Shown here: piece after piece, positions 4,925 through 22,836 of the stretch | How positions within the stretch are numbered: the stretch's first letter is position 1 | Layout of the letters: each line of letters begins with the position of its first letter | Assembly: GCF_054482525.1 (NCBI RefSeq) | Contig: NZ_CM137006.1 | Length of the DNA stretch: 64,000 nucleotides | Direction: 5' to 3' (one strand) | Notes under the pieces: generated by a model | Told to the model about the DNA's origin: nothing | The model's database searches: none | Seen by the model: the letters and a program-made list of their open reading frames with translations, nothing else | Position numbers and translations under genes: made by a program

Positions 4925-6907
4925 TTAACGGCTCTGCTTTCTCAACAAATAGATAAAATATGGCGCGCCGATAAAGGTCGACAGCAGCCCCGCTGGGATC
5001 TGGAATGGAAACAGCACCATCCGCCCACACCAGTCAGCGAACACCAGCAGTAATCCTCCCACCAGCGCCGAAATTACGATGTGTGGCATCGTCCGTCGAA
5101 AGCCCATCATCCGCGCAATATGCGGTGCCATTAAACCAACAAAACTCAACGGTCCAATGGTCATTGTCGCAGTCGCTGTCAGGCAAGCCGCTAACAGCAG
5201 CAGCGCAATTCGCGTCGGCGTCAGCGCCATCCCCACGGCTCGTGCGGTATCACCTCCCAGCGGTAAAATGGTCAGCCAGCGGCGGCACAGCGGGGTAATC
5301 GCCAGCAAAATCACCATCACAATTCCGGTACGCCAGACCTGCGCATCGGTCGCGTTGTAGGTCGAACCGGAAATCCAGGTCAGAACTTGCGCCATTCGCG
5401 GGTCACCACTTGCCTGCAACATCATCAAAAGCATGGTGAACGCGGTACTTAACGCCATCCCCGCCAGTAACATGCGGTGTGGGGAAAATCCACCGCGTCC
5501 GGCGGCGATCATAATGATCAACAGCGTCACCGCCGCGCCGAGACTGCCTGCAGGTAACAGCCAGCCAAAGGCATTACCCGGCACCAGAAACAGCATCAAC
5601 ACCACGCCAAACGCCGCGCCGGAGCTAATCCCCAGCACTTCCGGGCTTGCCATCGGGTTTCCGGTCAGCCGCTGAATAATACAGCCCGCCACCGCCAGCA
5701 TGACGCCCGCAAACAGCGCCGCCATAATTCGCGGCCAGCGCCAGGGCATTAAATCCTCGAGCAACGCCCCGCTCGCCCACGTCCAGCCGTGCGCATCACG
5801 ACCAAACGACAGCGCCACTACCACAGCCATCAACAGCAGCACGCCGCCCGCGAGGGCAAACGCCAGCACATGTTGGCGTTCAGTCGCGACACGATCGTTG
5901 ACCTTCATATCCGGCGCGCTAATGCTGCGTAAACGCGGCAGCAGCCACAGTAGCAGCGGCGCACCGATCAACGCAGTGACCGAACCGGTGGAAACTTCCA
6001 TCCACACGCGAGTCAGCCAGAGGATGATTTGATCAGAAAGCCACAGAATTAACGCACCAATCAGCGACGCCAGCATCAACCGTGGCAACAAACGCCGCGC
6101 CCCCAGCATTTTTGCCAGCAGTGGCGCGAACAACCCGATAAAGCCGATAATCCCCACTGCGTTCACCAGCAGCGCACTGATGACTATCGCCAGCGACAGC
6201 GCCGCCAGACGCGCGAGCGACAAGGCCAGCCCGAGGTTGCGCGCCACGCCATCATCAAGCCCCATCAGGGTTAACGGACGAAGTAGCAGTAACGTCAGCA
6301 TCACGCCGCCCAGCAGCTGCGGCCATAAACGCTCAACGCCGCCCCAGTCGGTTTGCGTCAGCGTTCCGGTGCTCCAGAGGAACATGCTTTGTAGCTGGTC
6401 GTGATGGAAGATAACCAGTAACTGATTGATTGCCCCGCAATAAAGGCTCACCACCAGCCCCGCGAGGATCAGCGTTACCGGAGAAAGCCGTTTCCCCCAC
6501 GCGACGCCAAAGACGATTAAGCCAACCACACAAGCCCCTGCCAGCGCAGCAAACTGGCTCGCCATCGCGCCGGGGATCGCCCAGAGCGTAGTGACGGTAA
6601 TCCCCAGTTGCGCGCCTGTAGCAACGCCAAGTGTCGTCGGTTCCGCCAGCGGGTTACGCAGCACTTGCTGAAACAGCACACCCACCAGCCCCAGGCCCGC
6701 GCCTACCAGCAGCGAAATCGCCAGACGCGGCAACAAGCTGTAGTGAAAAATCATCTGCTCGATGACGTCAATATCCGGCGACCAGGCAGCCTGCGCCCAC
6801 TGGCTACGCGGCAGCGCTTGCGAAAAGTTCATCCAGGTGAGCGCCGCTGCGACAATAACCAGCAGCGCCAGCAATAACGCCGGGAAAAGCGCAATTCGTT
6901 TACTCAC
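4925..6907 (-). CDS. fhuB: Ferric hydroxamate ABC transporter permease FhuB
   Basis: 660-aa duplicated FecCD-type permease; overlaps the fhuD stop. Confidence 0.95.
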   Translation of the reverse strand: MSKRIALFPALLLALLVIVAAALTWMNFSQALPRSQWAQAAWSPDIDVIEQMIFHYSLLPRLAISLLVGAGLGLVGVLFQQVLRNPLAEPTTLGVATGAQLGITVTTLWAIPGAMASQFAALAGACVVGLIVFGVAWGKRLSPVTLILAGLVVSLYCGAINQLLVIFHHDQLQSMFLWSTGTLTQTDWGGVERLWPQLLGGVMLTLLLLRPLTLMGLDDGVARNLGLALSLARLAALSLAIVISALLVNAVGIIGFIGLFAPLLAKMLGARRLLPRLMLASLIGALILWLSDQIILWLTRVWMEVSTGSVTALIGAPLLLWLLPRLRSISAPDMKVNDRVATERQHVLAFALAGGVLLLMAVVVALSFGRDAHGWTWASGALLEDLMPWRWPRIMAALFAGVMLAVAGCIIQRLTGNPMASPEVLGISSGAAFGVVLMLFLVPGNAFGWLLPAGSLGAAVTLLIIMIAAGRGGFSPHRMLLAGMALSTAFTMLLMMLQASGDPRMAQVLTWISGSTYNATDAQVWRTGIVMVILLAITPLCRRWLTILPLGGDTARAVGMALTPTRIALLLLAACLTATATMTIGPLSFVGLMAPHIARMMGFRRTMPHIVISALVGGLLLVFADWCGRMVLFPFQIPAGLLSTFIGAPYFIYLLRKQSR

Positions 6908-19128: not shown

Positions 19129-20526
19129 ATTTTTACCCGAGTCGCTAATTTTTGCCGCAAGGTGCTAAGCCGCGAGGAAAGCGAGGCTGAACAGGCAGTC
19201 GCCCGTCCACAGGTGACGGTGATCCCGCGTGAGCAGCATGCTATTTCCCGCAAAGATATCAGTGAAAATGCCCTGAAGGTAATGTACAGGCTCAATAAAG
19301 CGGGATACGAAGCCTGGCTGGTTGGCGGCGGCGTGCGCGACCTGTTACTTGGCAAAAAGCCGAAAGATTTTGACGTAACCACTAACGCCACGCCTGAACA
19401 GGTACGTAAACTGTTCCGTAACTGCCGCCTGGTGGGTCGCCGTTTCCGTCTGGCTCATGTGATGTTTGGCCCGGAGATTATCGAAGTTGCGACCTTCCGT
19501 GGACATCACGAAGGTAACGTCAGCGACCGCACGACCTCCCAACGCGGGCAAAACGGTATGTTGCTGCGCGACAACATTTTCGGCTCCATCGAAGAAGACG
19601 CCCAGCGCCGCGATTTCACTATCAACAGCCTGTATTACAGCGTGGCAGATTTTACCGTCCGTGATTACGTTGGCGGCATGAAGGATCTGAAAGACGGCGT
19701 TATCCGTCTGATTGGTAACCCGGAAACGCGCTACCGTGAAGATCCGGTACGGATGCTGCGCGCGGTACGTTTTGCCGCCAAATTGGGTATGCGTATCAGT
19801 CCTGAAACCGCAGAACCGATCCCTCGCCTGGCTACCCTGCTGAACGATATTCCTCCTGCACGTCTGTTTGAAGAATCTTTGAAACTGCTGCAAGCGGGCT
19901 ACGGTTACGAAACCTATAAGCTGCTGTGTGAATATCACCTGTTCCAGCCGCTGTTCCCGACCATTACCCGCTACTTCACGGAAAATGGCGACAGCCCGAT
20001 GGAGCGGATCATTGAACAGGTGCTGAAGAATACCGACACGCGTATCCATAACGATATGCGCGTGAACCCGGCGTTCCTGTTTGCCGCCATGTTCTGGTAC
20101 CCACTGCTGGAGACAGCACAGAAGATCGCCCAGGAAAGTGGCCTGACCTATCACGACGCTTTCGCGCTGGCGATGAACGACGTGCTGGACGAAGCCTGCC
20201 GTTCACTGGCAATCCCGAAACGTCTGACGACGTTAACCCGCGATATCTGGCAGTTGCAGTTGCGTATGTCCCGTCGTCAGGGTAAACGCGCCTGGAAACT
20301 GCTGGAGCATCCTAAGTTCCGTGCTGCTTATGACCTGTTGGCCTTGCGAGCTGAAGTTGAACGTAACGCTGAACTGCAGCGTCTTGTGAAATGGTGGGGT
20401 GAGTTCCAGGTTTCCGCGCCACCAGATCAAAAAGGGATGCTCAACGAGCTGGATGAAGAGCCGTCACCGCGTCGCCGTTCTCGTCGTCCACGCAAACGCG
20501 CACCGCGTCGTGAGGGTACCGCATGA
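19129..20526 (+). CDS. pcnB: Poly(A) polymerase I
   Basis: Nucleotidyltransferase motif [18 protein letters not shown]. Start placed at ATT 19129 ([11 protein letters not shown]...), the published non-canonical AUU start; the ORF track begins at TTG 19108. Confidence 0.9.
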
Positions 20527-21002
20527 CAGTGGCGTATATTGCCATAGGCAGCAATCTGGCCTCTCCACTGGAGCAGGTCAATGCTGCCCTGAAAGCATTA
20601 GGCGATATCCCTGAAAGCCGCATTCTTGCCGTTTCTTCGTTCTACCGCACCCCACCGCTGGGGCCGCAAGATCAACCCGATTACTTAAACGCAGCCGTGG
20701 CGCTGGAAACCTCTCTTGCACCTGAAGAGCTACTCAATCACACACAGCGTATCGAATTGCAGCAAGGTCGCGTCCGTAAAGCGGAACGCTGGGGACCGCG
20801 TACGCTGGATCTCGACATCATGCTGTTTGGTAATGAAGTGATAAATACCGAACGCCTGACCGTTCCGCACTACGATATGAAGAATCGTGGATTTATGCTG
20901 TGGCCACTGTTTGAAATTGCGCCGGAGTTGGTGTTTCCTGATGGGGAGACGTTGCGTCAAATCTTACATACAAGAGCATTTGACAAATTAAACAAATGGT
21001 AA
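20523..21002 (+). CDS. folK: 2-amino-4-hydroxy-6-hydroxymethyldihydropteridine pyrophosphokinase (HPPK)
   Basis: 159 aa, [12 protein letters not shown]...; its start overlaps the pcnB stop as ATGA. Confidence 0.93.
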
Positions 21003-21371
21003 TTTATTTATATTGCGAATATAAATATTTTCTGAAAATCACACCACCTCTCTTTCCTTAATAACGATTTTACTTTAAACATTTTTATAGAAAAATAATA
21101 TAAATTCCCGCAGATAAATATCAATCCCATCTCCATACCCTAACCAATTCCACTTGTGAACTTATTTTTACTTAATTTTGAATTAAGTAAATTTAATTTG
21201 TTTAAAAGCTTCTAAAGTGCACAATAGGCGACCTAATGAACAATGGTTGTAAATTTGGGTAACAAATATCATTGCTCATTAATATCTAACATTTGTTTCT
21301 CCTATTTGTGTCATGAATAGTCATTCTTCAAACATGTAGTCTGACTAATGGAATTTTATTCAAGGATTTTT

Positions 21372-21956
21372 ATGTCTAAAAAATTAGGTTTTGCCCTGTC
21401 TGGTCTTATGCTGGCAATGGTTGCAGGTACTGCTTCTGCTGATATGGACGGTGGTCAGTTAAATATCAGTGGCCTGGTTGTTGATAACACCTGTGAAACC
21501 CGTGTTGACGGCGGTAACAAAGATGGCCTGATCCTGCTGCAAACCGCAACTGTTGGTGAAATCGATGCAGGCGTACTCGAAACTACCGTTGGTGCCAAGG
21601 CTAAACCTTTCAGCATCACCGTTGATTGCAGCAAAGCAAACCCTGCACCGGGCAGCTCTGCCAAAATGACCTTCGGTTCCGTGTTCTTTGGTAACAGCAA
21701 AGGTACGCTGAACAACGATATGTCTATCAATAACCCATCTGACGGTGTGAATATTGCTCTGCACAACATTGACGGTTCCACTGTTAAGCAGGTAAAAATT
21801 AATAATCCTGGCGATGTTTACACTAAAGCACTGGACGCGACCACTAAATCTGTAACCTATGATTTTAAAGCATCCTATGTTCGAGCTGTAAATGACCAGA
21901 CGGCAACTGCTGGTTATGTAAAAACCAATACCGCATATACCGTTACTTATCAGTAA
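21372..21956 (+). CDS. yadN: Fimbrial major subunit-like protein YadN
   Basis: ORF 21348..21956 trimmed to [23 protein letters not shown] signal peptide; fimbrial subunit with conserved Cys pair. Confidence 0.85.
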
Positions 21957-22061: not shown

Positions 22062-22802
22062 ATGTTTTTTAATACAAAACATACTGTAGCATTATGCTTT
22101 GCAACCTGTTTAGCTTTTAGCTCTTCAGCTATTGCAGATATCGTCATTTCAGGTACACGCGTTATTTACACAAGCGATCAAAAAAGTGTCAATGTACGTC
22201 TGGAAAATAAAGGCAATAACCCATTGCTGGTCCAGAGTTGGTTAGATACCGGAGATGATAACGCCGAACCTGGCAGTATCAATGTCCCATTTACGGCGAC
22301 TCCCCCTGTTTCACGTATTGACGGCAAACGCGGTCAAACAATCAAGCTGATGTATACCGGCAGTTCTGCTTTACCCAAAGATCGGGAAAGTGTGTTTTGG
22401 TTCAATGTCCTCGAAGTTCCACCAAAACCCGACGCGGAAAAAATGGCTAACCAAAGCATGTTGCAACTGGCCTTCCGTACTCGCATCAAACTGTTTTATC
22501 GTCCGGAAGGACTCACCGGAATACCTTCCGATGCTCCGGCTGCACTGAAGTGGTCGTGGACAACATCCGGCGGCAAAGTGGCGCTTCGTGTCGTTAATCC
22601 TACCCCCTTCTACGTCTCTTTCAGCAGTGGTGACGTTGTCGCCAGCGGAAAACGTTATCCGTTAGACGTCAAAATGATCGCGCCACGCAGTGAAGATGCC
22701 ATCACAGTTAATGGGATCAGTAGCAAAGTGAGTTCTGCACAAGTTCACTTCTTTGCCATTAATGATTTTGGCGGCGCAATTGAAGGCAATGCCACTCTGT
22801 AA
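22062..22802 (+). CDS. yadV: Periplasmic fimbrial chaperone (PapD-like)
   Basis: 246-aa ORF with signal peptide, recognised as a PapD-fold pilus chaperone (also known as EcpD). Confidence 0.88.
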   Translation: MFFNTKHTVALCFATCLAFSSSAIADIVISGTRVIYTSDQKSVNVRLENKGNNPLLVQSWLDTGDDNAEPGSINVPFTATPPVSRIDGKRGQTIKLMYTGSSALPKDRESVFWFNVLEVPPKPDAEKMANQSMLQLAFRTRIKLFYRPEGLTGIPSDAPAALKWSWTTSGGKVALRVVNPTPFYVSFSSGDVVASGKRYPLDVKMIAPRSEDAITVNGISSKVSSAQVHFFAINDFGGAIEGNATL

Positions 22803-22836
22803 AGTCTTCAGGATCACACGCAGCAGGAAGCAAAAC

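Follow-up and report, generated by a model that had tools for sequence, protein, structure and literature searches.

The chaperone-usher fimbrial operons yad, sfm, elf/ycb and yeh of E. coli are reportedly cryptic and silenced by H-NS, a view that is said to go back to work by Korea in 2010 and Larsonneur in 2016. In K-12, yadN carries the flag “G, K, O”, which stands for the H-NS ChIP datasets of Grainger, Kahramanoglou and Oshima (PMC5797941 Table 2), and its expression increased 2.4-fold when SlyA was over-produced (PMC5797941). The K-12 yadN/folK spacer was also listed as the H-NS-associated “promoter island” 156927_379 (PMC3661553 Table 1). More recently, in a 2026 study, deletion of hns derepressed every yad gene in both CFT073 and EC958, and a Pyad-lux fusion was more than 100-fold up in CFT073 Δhns, an effect that was complemented; the study also cites published ChIP-seq data that place H-NS on the CFT073 yad locus (PMC13245861). 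The reporter fragment used in CFT073 corresponds to approximately 200 bp upstream of yadN and behaves as an H-NS-repressible, serum-responsive promoter, the serum induction persisting in Δhns through a trans factor that the study left unidentified (PMC13245861). According to the same paper, earlier K-12 work tied yad expression to temperature, oxygen and ArcA, and Yad is not phase-variable (PMC13245861). Besides, yadN expression rises upon inhibition of Rho, and LmiA, the only extra regulator tried by EMSA on PyadN, did not bind. The Reg-Seq paper has yadN among its listed genes and reports no result on it. In the published yad work that was found, no cis-elements were defined and neither the conserved block nor the dyad described below is mentioned. 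Yad fimbriae were recently shown to aid ExPEC in bloodstream and urinary infection.

The locus described here lies within a 64-kb stretch of DNA, hereafter the window, of which the 471 bp that were queried are 100% identical to E. coli PCN033. It is a yad chaperone-usher fimbrial locus whose orientation in the window is opposite to that of K-12, with the gene order gluQRS-pcnB-folK-yadN-yadV-htrE-yadMLKC-panBC, all on the + strand. The genes and the signals that frame the spacer between folK and yadN are as follows.

20523-21002, + strand: folK (RefSeq annotation of PCN033)
21000-21002, + strand: folK stop codon TAA, the end of the pcnB-folK unit (RefSeq annotation of PCN033)
21003-21371, no strand: folK-yadN spacer, the AT-rich, H-NS-silenced yad control region (GC content, distribution and literature)
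21348-21371, + strand: conserved leader just upstream of yadN (alignment of alleles)
21348-21354, + strand: ATGGAAT in the yadN leader
21362-21366, + strand: Shine-Dalgarno sequence AAGGA in the yadN leader
21372-21956, + strand: yadN, which opens the yad chaperone-usher operon and encodes its major subunit

With a GC content of 26.8% vs. 51.6% for the window, the 369-bp spacer is the lowest-GC stretch of its length in the whole 64 kb. The initial annotation, which had given it as 370 bp, was thus right in calling it very AT-rich. It had also proposed a likely H-NS-silenced fimbrial regulatory region, to be compared with published H-NS ChIP profiles, and this is borne out by the literature, yadN being bound in three K-12 datasets and the CFT073 locus being bound as well. 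This silencing was, however, already published for K-12, CFT073 and EC958, and the region as a whole, an H-NS-silenced yad control region, adds nothing new to what is known. The curved-DNA-like A/T tracts noted at the same time did not hold, with neither tract excess nor helical phasing in the spacer. Indeed, 10 tracts of A4+/T4+ are present vs. 8.3±2.5 expected from the composition (P=0.30), and no 10-11-bp periodicity of AA/TT appears in the spacer (autocorrelation of at most 0.13 at lags 9-11). A proU-type, high-affinity consensus for H-NS nucleation, TCGATAAATT, was reportedly derived by Lang in 2007. This consensus is not enriched in the spacer, where its best match reaches 7/10 at 21088-21097, outside the conserved block (P=1.0 in shuffles); the block itself scores 6/10 by hand, and only through its ATAAAT core.

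The distribution of the spacer was compared over 80 species representatives, among which the island is confined to E. coli-type genomes. In most genera, including Salmonella, Citrobacter, Klebsiella and Enterobacter, an unrelated panB leader directly follows folK, and in other species of Escherichia and Citrobacter the site is occupied by different fimbrial operons that lack the 23-bp block conserved in the spacer. As judged from this distribution, the spacer is horizontally acquired, lineage-restricted DNA set between conserved core genes. Since the other genera lack the block after folK, it belongs to the yad island, and a folK-linked 3' element kept beyond E. coli was ruled out, the sequence that follows folK in other genera being unrelated. 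A 42-aa ORF on the minus strand (21008-21136) was also discarded, as it sits in unconserved sequence.

Within E. coli, ten alleles of the spacer were aligned over 376 columns, i.e., PCN033, K-12, STLEFF_29 and WAT for clade A, AVS0747, DA33135, S1-ESP-03-A and SCPM-O-B-8794 for clades B/C, and HS13-1 and F11 for clade D. Spacer identity between clades is 46-57%, and 107 of the 376 aligned columns are invariant. In a census of 5,426 complete genomes, clade A accounted for 2,944 (~54%), clades B/C for ~1,072 and clade D for 560, and clades B/C, D and E together make up ~36% of the yad-bearing genomes. The elements of the spacer that emerged from this comparison are listed below.

21005-21014, no strand: left arm of palindrome 1, TATTTATATT, in the clade-A allele only
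21015-21017, no strand: centre of palindrome 1, GCG, which is ACG in many clade-A genomes (allele comparison)
21018-21027, no strand: right arm of palindrome 1, AATATAAATA, apparently ancestral and inside the conserved block
21017-21039, no strand: conserved block, GAATATAAATAWWTTCYGAAAAT, with 19 of 23 columns invariant in the 10 alleles
21027-21039, no strand: small palindrome ATTTTC-t-GAAAAT within the block, its core TTCYGAA being kept in all clades
21095-21124, minus strand: antisense sigma-70-like site TTGATA-16/18-TATATT/TATTAT, 10/12, specific to clade A
21167-21191, no strand: palindrome 2, TTTACTTAATT-ttg-AATTAAGTAAA, with 11-bp arms, at -205 to -181 from the yadN ATG
21249-21263, + strand: direct repeat GTAAA-N5-GTAAC, CpxR/OmpR-family-like, its aligned position being kept in all clades

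The 23-bp block stands out from this otherwise divergent spacer. Across alleles it follows the pattern GAATATAAATA-WW-TTC-Y-GAAAAT, in which the 11 bases of GAATATAAATA form the longest invariant run of the spacer (column-shuffle P=5e-5), and 21017-21039 is also the best 23-column window (column-shuffle P<5e-5); as the alleles are phylogenetically related, ~4-5 independent lineages stand behind these statistics. In all alleles, 13-14 nt separate the folK stop codon from the block, and although their number is constant these nucleotides vary freely, so that at least seven different left contexts flank one and the same block. Its first 16 bases form a quasi-palindrome, seen as GAATATA-aa-TATATTC in clade D. 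The block is unique in the window, even with up to 3 mismatches allowed, and single-copy per genome; among 47 metagenome matches to its pattern, 37 fall at the yad locus and 10 are unrelated chance matches. A repeated or mobile element, or a repeat marking the end of the island, was ruled out, block and dyad both being unique in the window and single-copy per genome. The block can also be read as a mini-ORF (ATG/GTG-AAT-ATA-AAT..., giving MNINKFRK in the clades other than A). This reading was ruled out because clade A has no start codon, no Shine-Dalgarno sequence precedes it, no synonymous-site pattern is seen and its length is variable.

The block overlaps the inverted repeat that the initial annotation had recognized beside the folK stop codon. 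This repeat, palindrome 1, is exact and proved to be one base longer per arm than claimed (10 vs. 9 bp). It reads TATTTATATT-gcg-AATATAAATA at 21005-21027, with a 3-nt spacer between its arms, and begins 2 nt past the TAA. By itself, palindrome 1 is only mildly unusual. When the folK-yadN spacer is shuffled with its dinucleotides preserved, perfect repeats with arms of at least 9 bp and at most 8 nt between them turn up with P=0.056, and those with arms of at least 10 bp with P=0.02. Within clade A, all 6 genome alleles have both arms intact, as do 26 of 27 metagenome contigs. Outside it, at least six unrelated sequences take the place of the left arm in clades B/C, D and E: TGTAACAGTAACGT, TTTAATGATTTCAT, TTATTTTTTGCAT and TTAGATAGCTGTGT stand at its position in other clades, and the metagenome scan added TTTATTAATTTCGT and TTTAATGATTTAGT. 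The palindrome is thus not conserved in the orthologous regions, and the proposal that it acts as a protein-binding unit is not supported, only the right arm being constrained. CFT073 belongs to clade D and carries the block without the left arm. As the left arm is unrelated outside clade A and the CFT073 promoter fragment does not contain the palindrome, palindrome 1 is probably not the functional unit. Moreover, the ~200 bp adjacent to yadN suffice for basal promoter activity, H-NS repression and serum induction, which makes both the block and palindrome 1 dispensable for them according to the only reporter data available, those of CFT073.

In clade A, the left arm reproduces the AATATAAATA of the block exactly as its reverse complement and lies immediately beside it. 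An imperfect relative of this left flank is found in L107 and in the clade-C alleles. The left arm would most likely derive from a pre-existing imperfect palindrome that was made perfect by chance or by template-switching during replication. Template-switching acts on quasi-palindromes in this way, chance and selection being possible as well.

Palindrome 2 had been missed by the initial annotation. Together with palindrome 1 it makes up two of the ten perfect repeats with arms of at least 10 bp in the 64 kb, and these two are the only ones composed of A/T only; two perfect repeats in one spacer are rare in shuffles (P=0.0002). This observation suggests that clade A could favour palindromy as such. 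The perfect arms of palindrome 2 extend to 15 bp in STLEFF_29, 13-15 bp in clade D and 17 bp in the L107 allele, and are 5-6 bp long in clade B/C (9 with G·U). A frame TTTAC-N15-GTAAA is common to clades A, D and E in an ungapped 50-nt alignment of ten alleles, around centres that differ wholly among alleles (ttg, attga, ttttcatat, ccctgat). Between clade D and clades A/E, a substitution and a 1-nt deletion are both mirrored in the two arms (CTTAA...TTAAG to CTAA...TTAG). The outer arm of clade B/C, TTTTRC/GTGGA, pairs only by G·U-type pairs on the + strand, and a G·A mismatch occurs in WAT, an allele that is common in clade A. Overall, 87 of 90 cells show pairing at the core 9 pairs; the shuffle controls are modest (5/500 and 10/500), and the number of independent lineages is small. 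In CFT073 the dyad is located at -214 to -180 from the yadN ATG; hence, the “~200 base” published reporter probably cuts through it. Palindrome 2 may thus bind a protein or form a structure, or its perfection may be maintained by template-switching.

The spacer was also scanned for sites of known regulators. None of 19 TF consensus sequences scored above dinucleotide shuffles in the spacer, a weak negative that covers among others Fur, Lrp, ArcA, IHF, CRP, FNR, CpxR, PmrA/BasR, PhoP, SlyA, H-NS, ArgR, OmpR, Fis, NagC-like, Nac, TyrR and RcsB. As regards promoters, the sigma-70 consensus scan gave 3 sites in the PCN033 spacer vs. 3.3 expected and none in that of CFT073 vs. 3.7 expected, and no sense-strand sigma-70 promoter is common to the clades in the three alleles scanned. 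The lack of a shared promoter in these sequences is consistent with one that is weak, activator-dependent or silenced. The regulator leads that remain are a PmrA/BasR-like match on dyad 2, the CpxR/OmpR-like repeat at 21249-21263 and the published effect of SlyA. On dyad 2, the PmrA/BasR-type YTTAAK-N5-YTTAAK is matched at 11/12 in the window and at 12/12 in clade B/C, which is to be taken as a lead only. The repeat at 21249-21263 matches GTAAANNNNNGTAAA at 9/10 (P=0.13) and an OmpR-like site at 10/12 (P=0.05), likewise a lead only, and it lies within the ~200-bp fragment that has promoter activity in CFT073.

The explanation that we favor, with moderate confidence in it as a whole, is that of an acquired, H-NS-silenced spacer in which the conserved 23-bp element is a putative DNA-level site at the distal edge and palindrome 1 a lineage-specific by-product, or embellishment, of that element. 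The invariance of the block across clades indicates that strong purifying selection acts on it in all yad alleles. It would be recognized at the DNA level by a nucleoid-associated protein or a regulator at the folK-side edge of the H-NS-bound tract, and it is not a transcription terminator. We infer this function from conservation alone. Considering the ~200-bp reporter, the block may also be unrelated to yad regulation or be relevant only in the chromosome, and its constant distance of 13-14 nt from the stop codon would also fit an element that acts as RNA within the folK 3' UTR, or else a promoter with its -35 element in the end of folK. Less well supported than this explanation are the readings of the region as palindromic operator, RNA 3'-end element, distal promoter or supercoil-responsive cruciform.

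A possible but unlikely reading is that the block and dyad 2 are operators for a putative regulator or anti-silencer that would counter H-NS in the chromosome and confer control by serum, temperature or oxygen. It is likewise improbable that palindrome 1, over its whole 23 bp, is the operator of a dimeric protein, which could repress or anti-silence yad or else regulate folK. Such a site would account for the perfect dyad symmetry around a 3-nt centre, for arms that are invariant in clade A while the centre varies between G and A, for the strong constraint on the right arm and for another perfect dyad, also with 3 nt between its arms, 160 bp downstream. However, clades B/C, D and E lack the left half-site, none of the TF consensus sequences scanned fits above shuffles and LmiA does not bind PyadN; besides, the 200-bp fragment with regulated promoter activity does not reach palindrome 1, which is located 345-367 bp upstream of the yadN ATG. 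Both A/T-only palindromes might instead be supercoiling-responsive cruciforms that couple yad to temperature and oxygen, to which its expression is reported to respond. They have perfect arms, 3-nt centres and A/T-rich flanks, and the complementarity of palindrome 2 appears to be kept across clades by the mirrored substitutions and the mirrored 1-nt indel. Nevertheless, arms of 10-11 bp are short for cruciform extrusion in vivo, palindrome 1 is absent from three clades and mirrored changes can arise neutrally through template-switching, and we regard cruciforms as very improbable.

At the RNA level, palindrome 1 or the conserved block could act in the pcnB-folK transcript as a weak intrinsic terminator, stabilise its 3' end, or serve in processing or Rho entry and so insulate yad. 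Some insulation is needed between the co-directional pcnB-folK and yad units, yadN goes up on Rho inhibition, and the block is held at a fixed distance from the stop codon by sequence that is itself variable. The RNA hairpin is followed by a U-rich tail, AUUUUCU (ATTTTCT in DNA), and the 32-nt segment folds better than shuffles (z=-3.6). This advantage is lost in a 51-nt context (z=-0.86), and the hairpin reaches only -4.3 kcal/mol without a single G-C pair; a comparable hairpin is absent in clades B, C and D, where values of -2.4 to -5.7 kcal/mol are obtained with z between -0.8 and +0.4. In addition, a terminator scan of the spacer called nothing in three alleles, Rfam 15 gave no match at E<=1 over 20800-21600 on both strands, the block is A/U-rich and not C-rich like rut sites, and, as weak evidence, the Term-seq supplement, which is possibly incomplete, contains no folK or yadN 3' end. 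A terminator was therefore ruled out on energy, composition and lack of conservation, in agreement with the initial judgment that the stem is too AT-rich for one, and an RNA element in the wider sense is improbable. We attach a similarly low probability to palindrome 1 being functionless chance and the block being kept for another purpose, e.g., a distal promoter with the -10 element TATAAA at 21020-21025 and its -35 in the end of folK. One such repeat has indeed a probability of 2-6%, the spacer is a published “promoter island” and the stop-to-block length is fixed with its sequence free, as a promoter spacing would be. Yet TGGTAA-17-TATAAA is a poor promoter (8/12, without the -7 T) that the scan did not report, the two perfect repeats together have P=0.0002, and a left arm that is the reverse complement of the block at 10 of 10 positions, exactly adjacent to it, is unlikely by chance alone.

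This comparison narrows the search in the yad control region to two short elements that appear to be under purifying selection, the remaining spacer evolving roughly neutrally. The eye-catching palindrome is not the conserved unit, which should spare an EMSA with the wrong probe. It also illustrates how, in AT-rich DNA, only one half of a perfect palindrome may be functional sequence, the other being a mirror copy specific to a lineage. If the operator reading of the block and the dyad were true, these elements would be a candidate target of the host-cue trans factor that the 2026 study left unidentified.

Among the cryptic E. coli chaperone-usher operons with H-NS-silenced promoters (yad, sfm, elf/ycb, yeh), the present locus is the yad member, in its PCN033 allele. 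It has the same gene order as the published yad locus and its spacer is 94% identical to that of K-12; the published H-NS binding and derepression come from strains other than PCN033. The spacer is likewise listed among the promoter islands of K-12 (PMC3661553), with which it has in common the association with H-NS and with horizontally acquired DNA. It differs from them in that a simple sigma-70 scan gives no excess of sites, the definition of the islands using a different algorithm. Like the fim and pap phase-variation regions, it is AT-rich DNA upstream of fimbrial genes and contains inverted repeats. Unlike in those regions, the arms are only 3 nt apart with no invertible segment between them, the repeats of the spacer contain no GATC, and the locus has no recombinase or local regulator gene. 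A fimS-like invertible switch was ruled out by the 3-nt distance between the arms, by the lack of a recombinase gene at the locus and by the statement that Yad is not phase-variable.

Palindrome 1 itself resembles Rho-independent terminators in its position directly past a stop codon and in its hairpin followed by a T-rich run, and differs from them by a stem without G-C pairs, a hairpin that is not conserved and a negative scan. Another parallel is the quasi-palindrome “correction” by replication template-switching that Ripley and Lovett are said to have described in E. coli. The mutational intermediates are not among the alleles observed here, and for the left arm such an origin would be a matter of inference; the likeness lies in one arm copying the conserved sequence next to it as an exact reverse complement, with an imperfect version in related alleles. 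As for the block, it shares with H-NS nucleation sites the properties of a short A/T-rich site with T-A steps and an ATAAAT core at the edge of a silenced tract. Such sites are usually not conserved base for base, in contrast to the block, which is kept in this way over 23 bp.

The AT-rich folK–yadN spacer contains a second perfect palindrome, composed of A and T only and located 160 bp downstream of the inverted repeat initially reported next to the folK stop. Complementarity of its arms appears to be preserved among divergent alleles through mirrored changes, and in these alleles the perfect arms reach up to 17 bp around unrelated centres.

Second palindrome of the spacer and its counterparts at loci from other genome or metagenome records
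21167-21191, window: second palindrome
490-539, L093: counterpart
6777-6826, L107: counterpart
17653-17619, L142, minus strand: counterpart

In the spacer alleles outside clade A, the clade of PCN033 and K-12, an ATG or GTG precedes the conserved block (21017-21039) and opens a tiny ORF (MNINKFRK...) of 6-15 amino acids or more.

Possible mini-ORF at the conserved block
21014-21040, window: mini-ORF position
Aligned positions in comparison loci L004, L010, L012, L013, L093 and L107: mini-ORF position

Because clade A carries GCG or ACG at the start position, the mini-ORF has no Shine-Dalgarno sequence and its length is variable, it is probably not coding. At the other end of the spacer (21348-21371), an in-frame ATG lies 24 nt 5' of the annotated yadN start, within an invariant ATGGAAT, and the annotated start itself has a good Shine-Dalgarno sequence (AAGGA, 21362-21366).

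In strains PSJ-12 and 23CRST024 (L003 3104-3880 and L005 3056-3814), an IS1 element lies 50 nt past the folK stop or within the last folK codons, and a deletion removes everything from IS1 to a remnant of yadC. The AT-rich spacer has thus been hit by IS1 more than once, and the yad operon is lost by this route. In strain A19 (L008), an IS3 element is found within yadN. In other species of Escherichia, Citrobacter and Pseudocitrobacter, the folK-panB site is occupied by different fimbrial operons (3' of folK in L014, L017, L018, L024, L025, L032, L048, L050, L062, L063 and L076), with major subunits that share only 38-56% identity with YadN. This site looks like a hot spot for chaperone-usher island exchange. 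The folK genes of Enterobacter, Leclercia and Lelliottia have an inverted repeat of their own behind them, e.g. CGATTAGCCA...TGGTTAATCG, and a strongly conserved TTGCCTAAAATCATTGTTCCC stands between this repeat and panB. These elements may represent a terminator and a leader element of panB that have no relation to the E. coli sequence.

Elements following folK in Enterobacter, Leclercia and Lelliottia
10-45 nt past the folK stop, L029, L042, L044, L061 and others: inverted repeat and TTGCCTAAAATCATTGTTCCC

PCN033, usually described as phylogroup D, has a clade A spacer 94% identical to that of K-12. Since a 2026 survey (PMC13245861) found Yad in just 5% of the genomes of that phylogroup, this suggests that its yad locus was acquired by recombination. 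The usher gene htrE (~22789-25438) has one additional C at 23604 (ACCACCGGGTG in the window versus ACCACGGGTG in RefSeq NZ_CP006632.1), which places a stop after codon 273 and leaves the usher split between two ORFs, 22753-23610 and 23582-25438; the RefSeq annotation gives an intact usher of 882 amino acids. Either the assembly versions differ here, or the extra C is a sequencing error, or the frameshift is real and would inactivate Yad assembly. The tip adhesin gene yadC is annotated by RefSeq as a pseudogene ('missing N-terminus'; L001 15358-16599, window ~27307-28548); hence, the operon may be defective in PCN033, however it is regulated.

Closer to yadN, a direct repeat, GTAAA-TTTGG-GTAAC (21249-21263), keeps its aligned position in every allele clade and falls inside the ~200 bp with regulated promoter activity in CFT073. 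This repeat resembles a box for response regulators of the CpxR/OmpR family.
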